From Candidatus Heimdallarchaeota archaeon (GTDB lineage Archaea; Asgardarchaeota; Heimdallarchaeia; Hodarchaeales; Hodarchaeaceae), in contig RDOB01000003.1 of assembly GCA_011364965.1 (NCBI GenBank), forward strand, positions 464,939-528,938: DNA of 64,000 nucleotides, given 5' to 3'. Positions 1-6,082 of the stretch are shown here, piece after piece. The number at the start of each line of letters is the position of its first letter. Position 1 is the first letter of the stretch. The notes under the pieces are model-generated. The model was given only the letters and a program-made list of their open reading frames with translations, did not search any database and was not told the DNA's origin. A program made the translations under genes and the position numbers.

Positions 1-285
1 TCCAATCCCCATGGAAAGCCCATCAGCTAAAAGATTAGCGAATCCAAGTATAATTACTATAAAAATATTCAAAGCTGCTCCAGTTACGCCGCAAACAACT
101 GCAAAAGTTGTTATTATTCCATCCAGTCCTCCATAAATTATACTTTTGATATATTTTCCCTGTTCAGTTTTGTGTTCTTCTGCAGGGCATTTCATATCAT
201 GTGCTGCGATAGATTTTTGAACATCTCCAAGTTTATAGGCTGTTTTAGCTTTGTGTAAATCCCGTTGTGGACACATATCATCCAT
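1..285 (-). CDS. VIT1/CCC1 family Fe2+/Mn2+ transporter (N-terminal part; runs off window start)
   Basis: Not in the ORF track. Manual reverse translation gives [14 protein letters not shown]...[53 protein letters not shown], containing the VIT1 hallmarks [13 protein letters not shown] and [20 protein letters not shown] at 286-290; the true start may be the ATG at 276. Confidence 0.9.
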
Positions 286-357
286 CACCTTATTTTTTAA
301 GTTCTGAACTCCAGCATATATTTATTTTTGATGAAGAAAGATAGGATCCCCATTTGA

Positions 358-377
358 CTGTTCACACTAGTGAACAG
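358..377. promoter_or_regulatory. Perfect 8-4-8 inverted repeat CTGTTCAC-ACTA-GTGAACAG, candidate operator between divergent VIT1 and P-type ATPase
   Basis: Read directly from the sequence; lies in the 175-bp divergent intergenic region. Confidence 0.55.
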
Positions 378-460
378 AATATCTTTATTGAAAAGGCAAA
401 AAAAGGGAAATGTGAGTATATCTTTCAATTTTTGCACCCCTAAATGGAAGAAAATTAAAA

Positions 461-3400
461 ATGGATTCCCAATTCATAGATTTCTGGAATGAAGGCCTAA
501 ATTCTACTGAAGTTATCAAAAAAAAGGCGATTTATGGCGAGAATCGGTTACCAGAGAAAAAAGGCCGAAGTACTTTTATGATTTATATTTCTCAATTTAA
601 AAACCCGTTGATATACATTATTTCTCTTGCAGCAATAATATCCCTTCTCTTGGAACAATATGAAGATACATTTATCATTATATGTGTTATTCTTCTGGAT
701 ACTGTTATTGGATTTTTCCAAGAATATAAGGCAGAGCAAACAATGGTTGCCTTGCGGAATTTACTCAAACCAATAGCTAAAGTGATTAGAGATGGAAAAA
801 TTCTAGAAATTTCGACAACTGAACTTGTACCCGAGGATATTGTAATAATCAATCAAGGAGATAAATTTCCTTCGGATGGGATACTAATAGAATCGCTCAA
901 TCTCTCCGTGAATGAAGCCATCCTTACTGGGGAGAGTGAAGCAATAGTTAAAGCGACTAAAGATTTAGTTTATATGGGTACAACTGCTTTGTCTGGACGG
1001 GGGGTAATGAAAGTAGTGAATATAGGCACCAAAACTGAACTTGGAAAGATTGCGACATCACTTTCCGATATTGGGGAAGAGGAAACACCCTTACAGCTAA
1101 AGTTAGAAAATTTTGGAAAATCTCTTACTTATATCGTAATATTGATCAGCTTGAGCATTTTTGCCATAGGAGTAATATTAAAGTTTAACATTTTTGAAAT
1201 GATTAGAATGTCGGTTGTTTTGGCTATTGCTGCAATTCCAGAAGGACTGATTATTGCTGTTACTATGATTCTAGCAATTGGAATGAGAAAAATTCTGCAG
1301 AAAAACGGGCTTGTCAAAAAATTATTAGCAGTTGAAACCCTTGGGTCTGTCTCTACCATTTGTACGGATAAAACTGGTACATTAACGGAAGGAAATATGC
1401 AAGTTGTCCGCTCTGATTTTAAATCAGAGAAAATGGCTGCATATGCAATGGCTTTATGTAATAATTTAGAAGATTCGTTAGAAATTCAGCTTTGGAATTA
1501 TGTTCAAACGTTAGGAGAAGATTCAGAGCGATTAACACGTAATTTCAAAAGAATTCATGAAATTCCATTCTCAAGTGATTATAAATTTATGTTAACGACA
1601 AATCAAATAGATGGAGAAGAGGTAAGTTTAATCAAGGGAGCTCCAGATATTGTCTTAGAGTTCTGTACAATAGAAAAAGGCGAGAAGACGCAAATTTACA
1701 CACAATTAGAAGAATGGGCAGGTTCTGGTTTAAAACTTCTTGGATTAGCGTACAAAAAAGATGGTAATATAAAAGAGGTGGAAGGATTTACATGGATTGG
1801 ACTTATTGGTTTTGAAGACCCCATTCGGCCTTCAGTTAAGGAAGCTATAGCTCTATGTCAGCGTGCAGGGATAAAAGTCAAGATTATAACTGGAGATTAC
1901 CAACGAACTGCAATTAAGGTCGCATCAAATCTTGGATTATCTGTTGGACAAGATAAAGTCATTAGTGGAGAGGAAGTAGAAAAATTATCTGATACAGAAT
2001 TATTAGAAATTGTTGAAGCTATTATCATATTTTATCGAGTTACTCCTCAACATAAATTAAGAATTGTAACAGCTCTTCAAAAATGTGGGGAAATTACTGC
2101 AATGATAGGCGATGGAGTAAACGACGCGCCTGCCTTAAAAAAAGCGAATATTGGAGTTTCCGTGGGAGGTGCAACAGATGTGGCTCAAGAAACAGCAAGC
2201 TTAATTCTTCTTGACCATAATTTCAAAACACTAGTTGATTCAGTAGAAGAGGGAAGAATTGTTTTTGACAATATAAAGAAAGTTGTCTCATTTGTGCTAT
2301 CAAACTCGTTTGCTGAAATCTTTACGATTTTTGGATCATTCATTTTAGGATGGCCGACGCCTTTAACAATCGCTCAAATTCTTTGGATTCATTTGATATG
2401 TGATGGACCTTCAGATGTAGCTCTCGGATTTGAAAGAGGAGAAAAAGGGATAATGGATGAACCACCTAGAAGAATAGATGAGAATATTCTGGACGCGAAG
2501 GGAAAGGTTCTTATTGCATCTATCAGTACAGTTTCAGCATTATTATGCCTAAGTATTTATGGTTATTTCCATCTTGTAGTAGGGAACCAAATATTAGGAA
2601 GTACATTAGTATTTGCAATATTAGGAATTCAATCGCTAATCTACATCTTCTCTTTTCGCAGTCTCAGACTTCCAATATTTAAATCTGGTAATTTTCTCTC
2701 TAATAAACCATTGGTCTTTTCAGTAGTATTAGGAATAAGTCAGATTCTTATTGGCCTTTATTTCCCCTTTTTCAGTGATATCCTAAATGTTACACCTCTC
2801 TATGTAAATGATTGGATAATTGTAATTTCAGTTTCTTTTTTAATGATCTTTATTGTTGAAATGGTTAAATATTTTGATCATCGAAGAAATCTCACCTCAC
2901 CCTACCAAAATATCATCACAAATATTCGAAAAGTGGAGGAAAAACTACCTGAAATTCATAATCTACATAATATCACGCTTGATATAATGGAAGATAAGAC
3001 CCTAATTCAATTCCATTTCAATATTCCGGCTGAAACAACACTCGAGATTGCCCATGAAGTGGCAAGAGGGATCGAAAATTTGATCGTAGAAGAAATCCCA
3101 CAATCAATTCGAAAAAGTATAGAGATTATTAGCCACATTGAGCCAGTTTCTGAAGAACCTCGAAAAATCCATTCACATCCCACACCTACTCCATCTCGAT
3201 CAATCAGAGAAATAATTCAAGCATCAATAAAAGAAATCCCGGAAATTAAAAATTGGGGACGTGAAACTGTACTTCAAGATAATGGTAATACTTCAATATC
3301 AATAGTAATTTATCTAGATGGAAATTTGAACATAAACCAAGTGCATGATTATACGGAAAAATTGGAAACGATCCTTAGAAGGAATATCCCCTCTTTAAAA

Positions 3401-3466
3401 CGCTGCATTATTCACTCAGAGCCATTGAAAGAATTCTCAGGAGGAATGAGAACATCTATATCTTAA
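461..3466 (+). CDS. P2-type (SERCA/PMR1-like) cation-transporting ATPase with two C-terminal CDF/ZT_dimer-like domains
   Basis: TGES, PEGL, DKTGTLT, KGAP, DPIRP, TGD and GDGVNDAPALKKA motifs; C-terminal ~180 aa contain two repeats of the cation-efflux cytoplasmic domain pattern (..AHEVARGIE..HIEP; ..VHDYTEKLE..IIHSEP). Confidence 0.93.
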   Translation: MDSQFIDFWNEGLNSTEVIKKKAIYGENRLPEKKGRSTFMIYISQFKNPLIYIISLAAIISLLLEQYEDTFIIICVILLDTVIGFFQEYKAEQTMVALRNLLKPIAKVIRDGKILEISTTELVPEDIVIINQGDKFPSDGILIESLNLSVNEAILTGESEAIVKATKDLVYMGTTALSGRGVMKVVNIGTKTELGKIATSLSDIGEEETPLQLKLENFGKSLTYIVILISLSIFAIGVILKFNIFEMIRMSVVLAIAAIPEGLIIAVTMILAIGMRKILQKNGLVKKLLAVETLGSVSTICTDKTGTLTEGNMQVVRSDFKSEKMAAYAMALCNNLEDSLEIQLWNYVQTLGEDSERLTRNFKRIHEIPFSSDYKFMLTTNQIDGEEVSLIKGAPDIVLEFCTIEKGEKTQIYTQLEEWAGSGLKLLGLAYKKDGNIKEVEGFTWIGLIGFEDPIRPSVKEAIALCQRAGIKVKIITGDYQRTAIKVASNLGLSVGQDKVISGEEVEKLSDTELLEIVEAIIIFYRVTPQHKLRIVTALQKCGEITAMIGDGVNDAPALKKANIGVSVGGATDVAQETASLILLDHNFKTLVDSVEEGRIVFDNIKKVVSFVLSNSFAEIFTIFGSFILGWPTPLTIAQILWIHLICDGPSDVALGFERGEKGIMDEPPRRIDENILDAKGKVLIASISTVSALLCLSIYGYFHLVVGNQILGSTLVFAILGIQSLIYIFSFRSLRLPIFKSGNFLSNKPLVFSVVLGISQILIGLYFPFFSDILNVTPLYVNDWIIVISVSFLMIFIVEMVKYFDHRRNLTSPYQNIITNIRKVEEKLPEIHNLHNITLDIMEDKTLIQFHFNIPAETTLEIAHEVARGIENLIVEEIPQSIRKSIEIISHIEPVSEEPRKIHSHPTPTPSRSIREIIQASIKEIPEIKNWGRETVLQDNGNTSISIVIYLDGNLNINQVHDYTEKLETILRRNIPSLKRCIIHSEPLKEFSGGMRTSIS

Positions 3467-3548
3467 GAGGAAGTATTCTTCAAAAATTCTCATACAATTT
3501 TAAAAACAACTTAATAAGAATATATCTTCAGGATAGATGAATGTATCT

Positions 3549-4055
3549 TTACAGGGAAATAACCTCTCCATACTTTCCCCGCGTAAATGTAAGCATTTTT
3601 GGGTATTCCTGTTGTTTCCAAGACTCATCGATCAGGAGTGCTACCACACGTGCTAGGAAAAGATCATGTGTTCCTAAAGGGATTATCTGTTCAATTTTAC
3701 ATTCCATATTGACAGGGCAAGCCTCAATCGCCGGAACTGCCACTTTATGACTTTTTCTTTTTATAAAGTGACATTCATCCCATTTATTAACTTCTTTCCC
3801 TGACTTCGTTCCACAGAACTTCACTTGCTTAAGCATATCGATAGTTGGAAAATTTACTACACATTCTTTTGAATTTTTTAGTATTAAATTTGAATATCTG
3901 TTAGGACGGATACTTAATGAGAGAATAGGCGGATCGGAACAGGATGTTCCAACCCATGCAAGTGTTATAATGGACTCACGGGTTTCATCCTGCACCGACA
4001 CTAAAACAACAGGATTTGGGTAAAATGCTGAATTTGGGTTTTCTTCTATCTTCAT
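3549..4055 (-). CDS. Flavin reductase family protein (flavoredoxin-like)
   Basis: YPNPVVLVS, PPILSLSIRPNRYS, CGTKSG, GTHDLF motifs; GAGGTGA RBS upstream. Confidence 0.9.
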   Translation of the reverse strand: MKIEENPNSAFYPNPVVLVSVQDETRESIITLAWVGTSCSDPPILSLSIRPNRYSNLILKNSKECVVNFPTIDMLKQVKFCGTKSGKEVNKWDECHFIKRKSHKVAVPAIEACPVNMECKIEQIIPLGTHDLFLARVVALLIDESWKQQEYPKMLTFTRGKYGEVISL

Positions 4056-4277
4056 TTATTCACCTCAAAACCACAGCTTATGGGTTATATGTATCTTCTA
4101 CTTTTTTTTGCGAAAGTTAGAATTATCTCAAGTTGGCAGATCCAACTAAAAAATGTTATGAATAAAGATGGTTGAAATAGATCCAAGGATATATTGCAAC
4201 CAATATTATAATTTATTTTATCCCTAGATAGCTGAATTGAGGAAAATTCTTTGAATAATAAAATAGGAAGACAAAAA

Positions 4278-4817
4278 CTATTTGTACATTTTTAGTAGAT
4301 TATATTTATGAGGATTAACTTCCTTAATCATCTCTGCAGCAGCATTTGTATTGAGTTTAATTAATTCATCCATTTTTGTCTCTAATTCGCTTGGTTCTTT
4401 AGTTTTAGTCGCGATAGAATAAAAATTAGACCATATTTGATCTTCAACTAGAGGGAGAGCTTTTTTTGCATTGATCTTGAAAATTGGGGCAAAGGTATCT
4501 TTAAATTCTTGTTTCCCTTTAGAATTTCCCACAGCAAAATGAAGGACTTTCCAAATGTGTTCTTTAGCTTTTCCTGTATCAATTTGGACGATAGAGCCTA
4601 ATTCCTCCTTTAATGCTTCCTCATTCTCACTAGATGTCGCTAGTTTGTGAATAGACGTCCAAAAATGTCCTTCATGAAGTTTAATAACTTCCCTTTCGCG
4701 AATTTCAAAAATTGATTGATATTTATCTCGAAATTCCTGTGCATTTCCTGTTTCCCCGATTGTATCACAAACAAGCATCCAAAAATGTTCTTTTATTTTA
4801 TCTTGATATTTTCCCAT
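4278..4817 (-). CDS. Hypothetical helical repeat protein (internal 76-aa duplication)
   Basis: HFW/HFW/HIW/QIW motifs at W13, W53, W89, W129; no recognised family. Confidence 0.75.
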   Translation of the reverse strand: MGKYQDKIKEHFWMLVCDTIGETGNAQEFRDKYQSIFEIREREVIKLHEGHFWTSIHKLATSSENEEALKEELGSIVQIDTGKAKEHIWKVLHFAVGNSKGKQEFKDTFAPIFKINAKKALPLVEDQIWSNFYSIATKTKEPSELETKMDELIKLNTNAAAEMIKEVNPHKYNLLKMYK

Positions 4818-5116
4818 GTAAGTGTCACCATTGGTTATTTAATTATTAATAATGGTTGATATTTGATTATTAATTTAGCTATATTGCTTTTATTAAAAAA
4901 ATATTATCCCTTATTTCTTATAGATTAAGTAGTTTAGCTTCTCAAGTCATTCTAGATTTGCTTCAAGAGCTTTGAATATGTGTGCTTTTTTCCTCTGCCG
5001 TATTCATCGAATTTTCGATAAAAATTCTGTTCTTTTTCATATTCACCATGGTACCATAACATGAACAGTCAACGTATAGTATAGTATAATAAACGAATCT
5101 TTATGAAAAAAGCTAC

Positions 5117-6082
5117 CTACTCAAAATTCTGCATAAGGAATGTAAGCCGATCTATACCTGCTTGGATTAGATCGGGTCGATCATGATCAAGACCAAATAG
5201 GATATAAGGAAGAAATGTAGTTTTAAACAAAAATTTCATTCGATCACGGATATTTGGATCAATATATTCCGTGTAGGTAGATAATATTGACTGAAGAAAT
5301 ATCTCGCCTTCATTAAAAAATAAGAGATCAACAGCAGGATCATAAAGTCTGGTATCTTCAAAATCAATAATACCTGTGACTGTATATGTTTGTGGATCGA
5401 TTAATATGTTTGTAGTATCAAAATCACAGTGACAGAGGGCGGGAAGAAACTCAATCTCTGACTCTAAAGTAAAAAAGTCTTTAAATTGATGTATGCTCCA
5501 TTCTTGTTGTAATTGAGAGAGAAATGGAAAAACACGAGTCCGAAGAACTTTATATTGATGTCGGTGTTGTTGCATATATTGAGAGACAGAAAAGGAAGAA
5601 CTAGAGGTAGCCCAATCAAAAGCATTAGAGAAACTGGAATAGTATCGAGTAAGAGAAATATCATGGAGTTCAGATAAAAATTTACCAATTTGCTGGCCTA
5701 TAAACACTGATTGGTCTGTTGACAGTTGGGAAAATAGTTTGGAAAGGGAGACCCCAGGAATTTTCTGATAACCTATGTATGGCAAATTGGGATCAGAAGA
5801 GATAAATTCAGGATTTGGGATTGTAGAAGTTAAGAATTCTTTTAGAAAAATGAGGGTCTCAACCTCCCTTTTGATAATCTGAACTCCTGATTCATTTCGT
5901 AAAGAACGATCAGGAAACCGAAAAATAAGATTCTGAGAGTCATGAGTAACTTCATATACATTATATGTCCCATGATATAAGAAATGAACCTCGGATTCAC
6001 TCACTTTTGGAAAATGTGTCTTCAAACACGAAAGAACAGCGTCAATTGGAATATCAGAAGGATTATTTTCTTCAAAGAACAT
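5117..6082 (-). CDS. Aminoglycoside phosphotransferase (APH)/choline kinase family protein
   Basis: IFRFP, Brenner-type HCDFDTTNIL and GIIDFED motifs. Confidence 0.88.
   Translation of the reverse strand: MFFEENNPSDIPIDAVLSCLKTHFPKVSESEVHFLYHGTYNVYEVTHDSQNLIFRFPDRSLRNESGVQIIKREVETLIFLKEFLTSTIPNPEFISSDPNLPYIGYQKIPGVSLSKLFSQLSTDQSVFIGQQIGKFLSELHDISLTRYYSSFSNAFDWATSSSSFSVSQYMQQHRHQYKVLRTRVFPFLSQLQQEWSIHQFKDFFTLESEIEFLPALCHCDFDTTNILIDPQTYTVTGIIDFEDTRLYDPAVDLLFFNEGEIFLQSILSTYTEYIDPNIRDRMKFLFKTTFLPYILFGLDHDRPDLIQAGIDRLTFLMQNFE

Follow-up and report, generated by a model that had tools for sequence, protein, structure and literature searches.

In the textbook division of labor among P-type ATPases, the export of transition metals falls to P1B pumps, while P2A pumps move Ca2+ and, as a side substrate, Mn2+. 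Some P-type pumps also carry autoinhibitory tails, such as the calmodulin-binding tails of PMCA and plant ACA and the R domain of the H+-ATPase. It has been reported that in the P2A pump SPCA1a, Ca2+ or Mn2+ is bound by three carbonyls of M4 (Val303, Ala304 and Ile306) and by Asn738 and Asp742, with Glu308 as a further, weak ligand (PMC9984183), and that the pneumococcal pump MgtA, a bacterial P2A pump, exports both Mn(II) and Ca(II) (PMC11672702). In P1B-4 Co2+ pumps, the membrane motifs are Ser/Cys and His/Glu/Thr (PMC3573892, Table 1). For Asgard archaea, a paper on the transportome mentions only a putative Ca2+-ATPase. Here we describe a P-type ATPase gene found in a stretch of 64,000 nucleotides (the window) from a Candidatus Heimdallarchaeota archaeon (GenBank assembly GCA_011364965.1, contig RDOB01000003.1, positions 464,939 to 528,938 of the forward strand). 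The gene is real, intact and unusual, and combines a P2A scaffold, a non-canonical soft-ligand ion site and a module borrowed from cation diffusion facilitators (CDFs). With confidence a little better than even, we read its product from the sequence as an ATP-driven exporter of a divalent transition metal that is built on the P2A scaffold, carries a cytosolic metal-sensing tail and would be controlled through an operator. A preliminary description of the locus had started from the premise that P1B and not P2 ATPases normally export transition metals; this needs qualification, since the P2 group already includes the Mn2+ exporters SPCA1 (PMC9984183) and pneumococcal MgtA (PMC11672702).

The window lies on contig C11 of the host assembly (G000; 2.97 Mb, 35% G+C, 87% complete), and was compared with 21 congeneric genomes (22 genomes in total with the host). 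Pump features in the window, apart from those of the tail, are the following:

461–3466, forward strand: P2A (SPCA/LMCA1-like) P-type ATPase with a C-terminal tandem pair of CDF-type domains, 1001 amino acids, by open reading frame (ORF) call and profiles.
926–937, forward strand: TGES motif of the actuator domain, amino acids 156–159, by motif.
1235–1249, forward strand: M4 IPEGL, amino acids 259–263, with Glu261 at the position of SPCA1 Glu308, by alignment and motif.
1367–1387, forward strand: DKTGTLT phosphorylation motif, amino acids 303–309, by motif.
2297–2317, forward strand: M5 LSNSFAE, amino acids 613–619, with S614, S616 and E619 invariant in the family, by alignment.
2375–2407, forward strand: M6 QILWIHLICDG, amino acids 639–649, with His644, Cys647 and Asp648, by alignment.

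The pump ORF is intact, and its product matched the Pfam families E1-E2_ATPase, Cation_ATPase_N, Cation_ATPase_C, Hydrolase and, in two stretches, ZT_dimer. The membrane architecture is that of a type II pump (PF00690, 2e-13; PF00689, 1e-38; IPEGL in M4), and all catalytic motifs are present (TGES at amino acid 156, DKTGT at 303, KGAPD at 392 and GDGVNDAP(AL) at 550). By HMMER alignment, the best solved relatives were human SPCA1 (8iwp; E 7.9e-136) and then Listeria LMCA1, and the top NCBIfam model was the PMR1-type TIGR01522, whose equivalog cut-off was not reached (555.6 versus 798.3 bits). Named protein relatives came from Hodarchaeum, “Promethearchaeota” and Lokiarchaeota metagenome-assembled genomes, and DNA identical to the stretch was present in metagenomes from marine sediment, estuary, mangrove and “soil”.

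The pump resembles SPCA1/PMR1 (PDB 8iwp and 7yag) in having ten transmembrane (TM) helices of type II, PEGL in M4, Asp in M6 and a lost M8 ligand, and SPCA1 is itself a P2 pump that carries the transition metal Mn2+ (PMC9984183). However, SPCA1 uses Asn738, Asp742, Glu308 and the M4 carbonyls as ligands, has Met741 and an Ala in M5, and lacks a CDF-type tail. LMCA1 (PDB 6zhf) is likewise a prokaryotic P2A pump of similar length that aligned over the full length, but LMCA1-type sequences have neither the His/Cys site nor the tail described below. The P1B-4 (PfeT/CtpD-type Co2+/Fe2+) pumps are similar in the proposed export of a borderline divalent metal and in the kinds of ligand, whereas their scaffold is unrelated within the superfamily: the present pump has Cation_ATPase_N and Cation_ATPase_C and ten TM helices, PEGL replaces SPC/CPC in the M4-equivalent helix, no HMA match was found, and P1B models of NCBIfam gave 145–267 bits, below their own cut-offs and below the P2 models. 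Nor is the protein a CDF transporter, as no PF01545 (Cation_efflux) six-TM domain was found in it. MgtA, which we compared by description, is riboswitch-controlled, whereas an Rfam scan of positions 1–4200 at E ≤ 1 gave no matches and thus found no such element at this pump.

The ion site differs from that of the known P2A pumps. When the protein was aligned with human SPCA1 (8iwp; HMMER), His644 fell on Asn738, Cys647 on Met741, Asp648 on Asp742 and the M5 residue Glu619 on an Ala. Asn738 is a direct side-chain ligand in SPCA1, and therefore one direct ligand has become His in this pump. The host genome also encodes a canonical P2A paralog (C9:342052–344691) with LSCNAGE in M5 and QILWVNLATDG in M6. 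Compared with this paralog, the pump has Ser616 for Asn, His644 for Asn and Cys647 for Thr, and keeps E619 and D648; a Ca-type pump with the canonical N/E and N/T/D residues therefore coexists with the His/Cys pump. The latter lacks the oxygen-only set of Ca2+ ligands, which consists of an M6 Asn and Asp, joined in two-site pumps by Thr and the M5 Asn/Glu. The preliminary description had placed both the M5 motif and the M6 motif (2375–2407) exactly. It had equated His and Cys with the SERCA Ca2+ ligands Asn796 and Thr799; the host paralog has Asn and Thr at these places, and SPCA1 has Asn738 and Met741.

The substitutions are a property of a whole family. M6 was readable in 119 of the 120 best database matches to the pump, and each of the 119 read WIH(L/V/M)(I/V)CDG, the H, C and D being invariant. 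Untailed pumps of roughly 810–875 amino acids made up about 90 of these proteins. The question, raised earlier, whether the IHLICD motif co-occurs with the C-terminal fusion is thus answered in the negative: the motif is family-wide and sits mostly on untailed pumps. Names in the His/Cys family included Bathyarchaeota, Thermoproteota, Hermodarchaeota, a DPANN archaeon and Anaerolineae bacteria. Across 116 members, E261, T268, S614, S616, E619, Q639, W642, H644, C647, D648, P650 and D652 were at least 98% conserved, and the M8 segment, a source of ligands in two-site Ca pumps, was not conserved. Farther relatives with a readable M6 (≤44% identity), which were Asgard paralogs and bacterial or archaeal pumps, had LW(I/V)NL(V/A/I)TD or another motif without His/Cys. 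In a single-protein scan of genome contigs, one true family member was found (L001, Bathyarchaeia) and the remaining matches were canonical N..TD pumps. By these alignments, the WIHLICDG pumps are a large, discrete branch of ~820-amino-acid proteins defined by a Glu/Ser/Glu/His/Cys/Asp site and found in anaerobic archaea and bacteria. In such pumps, the all-oxygen Ca2+ site would have been rebuilt into a cluster of E261 (M4), S616 and E619 (M5), and H644, C647 and D648 (M6). Literature searches found no paper for “IHLICDG” and none for a P-type ATPase fused to ZT_dimer, which does not prove that nothing has been published.

Could the protein nevertheless transport Ca2+ (or Ca2+ and Mn2+) as SPCA and LMCA1 do, with His644 and Cys647 serving proton counter-transport or structure instead of substrate choice, and with a tail that does no more than make a Ca2+ pump responsive to transition metal in the cytosol? 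We consider this improbable. The closest solved relatives are indeed Ca2+/Mn2+ and Ca2+ pumps, the best NCBIfam model is of the PMR1 type, PEGL, E619 and D648 are retained, and relatives are named Ca2+-transporting ATPase in databases. However, the PMR1 score remained below the equivalog cut-off given above; throughout the family, the SPCA1 ligand Asn has been replaced by an invariant His and a nearby position by an invariant Cys, whereas the paralogs all keep N..TD; the host already has its canonical N/E and N/T/D pump; and the operator described below is shared with feoAB and not with calcium genes. The earlier suggestion of a Ca-pump scaffold retuned to a transition metal is strengthened by the family-wide site and by the feoAB operator, and we still infer it rather than observe it.

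Behind the last TM helix, the pump carries a tail with three parts:

2909–3145, forward strand: tail domain a (first ZT_dimer), amino acids 817–895, with His/His/His/His/Glu at the five YiiP site-C positions, by profile.
3146–3196, forward strand: linker with a conserved K-x-H-S-H motif and a low-confidence model, by alignment and model.
3197–3424, forward strand: tail domain b (second ZT_dimer), amino acids 913–988, with three of the five site-C positions (His, His and Glu), by profile.

ZT_dimer (PF16916) scored 55.2 bits against a cut-off of 26.7, in two stretches after TM10, and both were found again by the genome search. The tail has 10 His in 196 residues (5.1%), versus 0.6% His in the pump body, in agreement with the two His-rich ZT_dimer-like domains noted previously. 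In an AlphaFold2 model of residues 811–1001 (pLDDT 78, pTM 0.66), two alpha-beta-beta-alpha-beta domains were separated by a disordered linker. When the model was compared with known structures (Foldseek, VIA-align), domain b matched the CDF C-terminal domains of CzcD, MamM, YiiP and CzrB (Z 12.2–13.4, root-mean-square deviation 1.3–2.4 over ~80 residues), the best being CzcD (Z 13.4, deviation 2.4 over 84 residues), followed by YiiP (Z 13.2). Because domain b filled the structural match list of the whole tail, domain a was modeled alone (pLDDT 77.5); it matched the C-terminal domains of MamB (Z 12.9, deviation 1.8 over 84 residues), a T. maritima CDF (Z 11.5) and YiiP (Z 10.7). As modeled, both tail domains adopt the CDF C-terminal domain fold, which they would share with YiiP/FieF, CzrB, CzcD, MamM and MamB (Z 10.7–13.4); the possibility raised at the outset that the repeats lack this fold was thus not borne out by the predictions (Z 12.9 for a, 13.4 for b). 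In CDFs such domains sit on a Cation_efflux membrane domain, whereas here two unlike domains are part of one P-type ATPase chain.

Metal-ligand positions of YiiP are also retained. Within the tail, His26, His42, His55, His82 and Glu84 of domain a fell on LHD, FHL, AHS and IHQDP of Shewanella YiiP in the alignment. We take these YiiP residues to be the site-C residues H234, H250, H263, H285 and D287, and PDB titles confirm H263 and D287 as zinc-site mutants. Domain a thus has five of five site-C positions and domain b three of five (H152, H175 and E177), the latter read by motif position and not by residue-level alignment. In 27 tailed pumps, H55, E62, H82, E84, P85, H152, E159, H175 and P178 were invariant and H26, H42 and E177 nearly so.

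The origin of the tail could be traced. An exhaustive profile-free search with the tail gave 319 proteins. The best matches besides ATPase fragments were CDFs of ~460–520 amino acids, consisting of Cation_efflux and three ZT_dimer domains (E from 1e-10 down to 4e-24 for the tail domains against those of triple-domain CDFs), and stand-alone two-domain ZT_dimer proteins of ~160 amino acids were also found. These multi-domain CDFs and stand-alone proteins are among P0122 and P0125–P0145; one CDF, P0145, carries five ZT_dimer domains. In the triple-domain CDFs, the second domain was the only one matched by domain a (best E 4e-24) and the third the only one matched by domain b (best E 9e-22), and therefore the tail is an old two-domain unit that was moved as a block. 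Its nearest relatives are accessory second and third domains and not the canonical first domain. Domains a and b have no detectable similarity to each other; as each matches a distinct CDF domain, an origin of the tail by duplication inside the ATPase was rejected. Triple-domain CDFs occur in the same genus (G071:C21:39699–41021, G073:C75 and G066:C1:3597641–3598966). We know of no description of multi-domain CDF tails. Fold, site-C positions and the match to CDF domains 2 and 3 together bear out the borrowed CDF module of the preliminary description with regard to origin and fold.

A tree of the pump core (tail columns removed, two paralogs as outgroup, FastTree) placed 28 of 28 tailed sequences in one group, which also held two untailed DPANN sequences and was nested within the untailed family (support 91 for the 30-row group and 99 for its parent). 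Tailed pumps were from Asgard archaea wherever named, and four of them carried three tail domains. Among 400 sampled Asgard genomes, tailed orthologs, full or partial, were found in 6 of the 22 genomes of this genus, and none outside the genus among the listed best matches. In the simplest reading of this tree, the tail was gained once, with later loss or transfer possible. The two untailed pumps within the tailed clade (P0050 and P0119) belong to the DPANN archaeon Candidatus Tiddalikarchaeum, which suggests tail loss or transfer. They are annotated as “Copper-exporting P-type ATPase B”; their PEGL and WIHLICDG motifs do not support this name and suggest a mis-annotation.

We propose that one Asgard-centered clade acquired, once, a two-domain module corresponding to the second and third C-terminal domains of triple-domain CDFs, and that the two unlike domains would pack as an intramolecular pseudo-dimer. 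The tail may bind cytosolic metal at the His/Glu positions that resemble YiiP site C and couple occupancy to turnover, acting as a metal-relieved regulatory tail. By analogy with the autoinhibitory tails mentioned above, it would be a terminal cytosolic extension that could gate turnover by ligand; unlike in those pumps, the borrowed CDF module would read the same kind of ion that the pump transports. Equally improbable as the Ca2+ pump is, in our estimate, a tail that is not a sensor but a dimerization or scaffolding module, which oligomerizes the pump or docks a CDF or another partner and holds structural metal at most. CDF C-terminal domains do mediate dimerization (PDB titles of YiiP, MamM and CzrB), multi-domain CDFs with 3–5 such domains and stand-alone two-domain proteins exist, and the nesting of two untailed pumps in the tailed clade means that the tail is dispensable. 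However, the residues conserved in the 27 tailed pumps are the YiiP site-C ligand positions, of which domain b keeps a complementary subset, and a and b are unlike, always together and in fixed order, which fits an internal heterodimer better than an intermolecular homodimer.

Upstream of the pump, two promoter features were found:

358–377, no strand assigned: operator-like palindrome CTGTTCAC-ACTA-GTGAACAG, with the core TGTTCAC-N4-GTGAACA at 359–376, by sequence.
385–395, forward strand: candidate TATA-like box TTTATTGAAAA, 7 nucleotides (nt) past the operator towards the pump, by sequence.

The pump ATG is 84 nt downstream of the palindrome; on the other side, the start of a divergent gene of the VIT1 family is 70 nt away. 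The repeat had been called a perfect 20-bp palindrome; its 8-nt arms are perfect, but the 4-nt spacer ACTA is not palindromic, and 16 of 20 positions are symmetric. Because ~0.04 inverted repeats with 8-nt arms (spacer ≤6 nt) are expected by chance in the 172-nt intergenic spacer, its significance rests on recurrence in other genomes and not on the repeat itself. The core occurs as a single perfect copy in the host genome. Two-mismatch copies were found 136 and 141 nt before the pump start codon in G072 and G074, respectively, where they were the only copies with at most two mismatches in those 19-kb loci (background 2.7e-6 per position, or 0.0016 per 600 nt). The G067 pump has a half-site only, and the G071 contig begins too near the pump gene to judge. 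The palindrome was also flagged by a sigma-70/terminator scan; a terminator was rejected because the flanking genes diverge, and the scan is not meaningful for an archaeon. Another near-perfect copy in the host (C11:388701–388718; one mismatch, ~0.02 expected in the genome) was rejected as an operator: it is inside the 3′ part of a 379-amino-acid ORF, with the same sequence at G060:C225:12257, and is probably coding sequence.

In the congeners, the same operator was found at iron uptake genes. A perfect copy lies between a TATAAGG box and the feoA start codon in G071 and G072, with feoB following, and copies with at most one mismatch were located 19–40 nt before the FeoA match in G059, G071, G072, G073, G074 and G075. 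In all six congeners the site falls between the TATA box and the feoA start. The arms are conserved across the feoA copies and the 4-nt spacer is variable, as expected for a protein-binding site. The 22 genomes contain five perfect operators, compared with ~0.3 expected from base composition, and all five are in transporter-gene promoters, one at the pump described here and two each at feoA and an ABC-2 exporter. Operator targets also included ABC-2 exporters in G061, G062 and G063 (with a two-mismatch copy in the host at C1:110992), membrane methyltransferases of the ICMT/PEMT-like kind (G059:C54, G062:C188 and G067:C23), an alpha/beta hydrolase with an ABC exporter (G059 and G077) and a 679-amino-acid Cation_efflux protein (G062). 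ICMT-family proteins (CzcN) occur in bacterial metal-resistance clusters. Judged by this recurrence, the palindrome is a regulon operator; we know of no regulon described previously in Hodarchaeales-like Asgard archaea. In G074:C39, the palindrome overlaps the start of a Ste24-like CAAX protease (Peptidase_M48).

The placement of the operator differed between targets. At feoA it stands downstream of TATA, with 12 nt between its end and the start codon. By contrast, the operator comes first at the ABC-2, ICMT-like and hydrolase genes, where it is directly followed by a T/A-rich TATA-like box; at the pump such a box comes after 7 nt. In the archaeal dual regulators TrmBL1 and Tgr, a palindrome downstream of TATA means repression and one upstream activation; the same two placements are seen here, with a different motif. 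By analogy with these regulators, one metal-loaded factor may repress feoAB and activate the pump. A single metal-responsive regulator at TGTTCAC-N4-GTGAACA would then shut uptake, from the repressor position at feoAB, and turn on export. The weakest alternative, and in our view quite unlikely, is a metal importer or another low-metal role, with one holo-repressor acting on both the pump and feoAB, and with the tail as a feedback brake at high cytosolic metal: the shared operator at feoAB, the ability of an operator abutting TATA and the TFB recognition element (BRE) to block TFB/TBP, the uptake reported for the type II P-type ATPase CtpE of M. smegmatis (PMC5615198) and the lack of feoAB in the host assembly would suit it, but the tail derives from CDF exporters, the nearest characterized relatives move ions out of the cytosol, the adjoining VIT1 and CDF genes belong to exporter families, and the operator stands after TATA at feoA and before the TATA-like box at the pump, ABC-2 and ICMT-like genes, which argues for opposite and not identical control.

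Several proteins were considered as the operator's factor. In G071, a DtxR-like protein and a DUF134 helix-turn-helix (HTH) protein are encoded just upstream of feoA. Family and protein searches found no DtxR homolog in the host genome, and a DtxR-type repressor, though present near feoA in G071, was set aside for this reason. The host has two DUF134 genes, at C11:1392–1757 and C15:107351–107680. Its sole match to the FUR profile was weak, a 196-amino-acid ORF at C9:405692–406282 that by eye was judged to be an ArsR-like winged-helix protein. As a separate observation, locus L053 (G071:C5:186500–196500) contains an iron-related cluster upstream of feoAB, with a CDF fused to a NifX-like Nitro_FeMo-Co domain (395 amino acids), an Mrp/ParA-like ATPase, DUF364/DUF4213 (“heavy-metal chelation”), DUF5320, and the DtxR-like and DUF134 HTH proteins.

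The gene divergent from the pump was the other metal-related gene of the window:

1–288, reverse strand: N-terminal part (96 codons) of a gene of the VIT1/CCC1 family that diverges from the pump, by PF01988.

Its identification by the preliminary description was correct: the 96 amino acids inside the window scored 52.2 bits against PF01988 (cut-off 28.1), and the full ORF of 267 amino acids continues beyond the window edge in the assembly. The link between pump and VIT1, which had been proposed along with it in the form of co-regulation, is not a general one: the adjacency was seen only in the host genome, the operator travels with the pump gene, and a TATA-like box is found on the pump side only, with none for ~35 nt on the VIT1 side of the palindrome. 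No VIT1 gene was found within 1.5 kb of the orthologous pump loci, five congeners with a tailed pump have their VIT1-family genes on other contigs, none of 21 congeners has a close homolog of the window VIT1, and no operator with at most three mismatches was found at the five VIT1-family genes that were examined. The VIT1 protein has an N-terminal extension of ~45 amino acids (145–288, reverse strand) with two Cys-Pro and several His, possibly an arm that binds metal in the cytosol. Because the annotated GTG start is overlapped by a strong Shine-Dalgarno-like AAGGTGAT, translation may in fact begin at the ATG at 285 or at the ATG after it.

Genes flanking the tailed pump differed in every genome, and no synteny was observed. 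Divalent-metal transporter genes lay within 1.5 kb in two of five tailed-pump loci, namely VIT1 in the host and a CDF in G067; the latter, a canonical CDF 1.3 kb downstream of the pump, is the only other metal gene nearby. Downstream of the pump in the window are a flavin reductase-like gene (3549–4055, reverse strand), a gene for a 179-amino-acid protein that matches no Pfam family and shows an internal repeat-like pattern (4278–4817, reverse strand) and an APH/choline-kinase-like phosphotransferase gene (5117–6082, reverse strand); none of the genes at 3549–6082 is conserved beside the pump in congeners. Searches of the host assembly, which is 87% complete, gave no match to Cation_efflux or FeoA, no true FeoB and no C-terminal domain of DtxR. 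Complementarity between tailed pumps and CDF genes was considered and rejected: G000 and G072 are without Cation_efflux, but G067, G071, G074 and G076 have both. The host assembly is 1–3 Mb smaller than most of its 21 congeners, and its lack of the Cation_efflux, FeoA, FeoB and DtxR-type genes common in them may reflect real reduction or missing contigs.

Taken together, we infer from the sequence the substrate, the transport direction, the mechanism of the tail and the sign of regulation. The pump would export a divalent transition metal from the cytosol, with Fe2+ favored. As to the ion, hints conflict: Fe/Mn is suggested by the operator shared with feoAB and by the VIT1 and CDF neighbors, Zn/Fe by the His-rich site C, and the donor CDFs are without a His in TM domain (TMD) V. 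The membrane site of the donor-type CDFs is DxxxD in TMD II and NxxxD in TMD V. TMD V is reported to read HxxxD in Zn and Fe/Zn CDFs and DxxxD in Mn CDFs (PMC1868760), and the donor motif is thus a weak hint away from zinc. Fe2+ seems the likeliest single substrate, though well short of an even chance, and Zn2+ is a possible second; other or mixed ions (Mn/Co/Ni/Cd) appear slightly less probable than Zn2+, Ca2+ less probable again, and anything else very improbable.

A number of observations weigh against an exporter under metal control. The His-rich site-C pattern is best known from the Zn-binding YiiP, whereas the DxxxD/NxxxD of the donor CDFs is unlike Zn or Fe/Zn CDFs. Besides, operator matches with at most one mismatch were only ~1.5 times as frequent as those of a reversed control pattern, and for this reason only perfect or recurrent sites were counted. 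The regulon holds ICMT-like methyltransferases, ABC-2 exporters and a hydrolase, and its signal need not be iron. The host assembly shows neither feoAB nor a DtxR-type repressor. An operator abutting TATA/BRE could repress instead of activating; in that case pump and feoAB would be expressed together at low metal, as would suit an importer or some other role. Gene neighborhoods are otherwise uninformative and not syntenic, and the pTM of 0.66 limits what the tail model may say of the relative packing of domains a and b.

New in the present analysis are the family-wide His/Cys site, the origin of the tail from CDF domains 2 and 3, the tree with a single origin of the tail and the operator linked to feoAB, as well as the loss of the VIT1 argument. 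At somewhat less than even confidence, we further suggest that the WIHLICDG pumps may be a third transition-metal class of P-type ATPases, which arose independently, out of the P2A scaffold and not out of P1B, and is widespread in anaerobic archaea and bacteria, that the CDF domain pair may be a portable, self-contained cytosolic sensor of metal on unrelated transporters, and that in this Asgard genus one regulator may act at the palindrome both to repress Fe2+ uptake and to activate ATP-driven export. A large family derived from P2A pumps in which the His/Cys/Asp/Glu site is invariant would demonstrate that a few changes in M5 and M6 can re-engineer the metal selectivity of P-type pumps, and the His/Cys pump would offer a natural “swap” comparison with SPCA and LMCA1, for which structures exist. 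The tail shows the C-terminal domain of CDFs to be a transferable module, and, with two domains in a single chain, its debated role as a sensor could be addressed without obligate homodimers. The operator provides a first handle on metal regulation in Hodarchaeales-like Asgard archaea.

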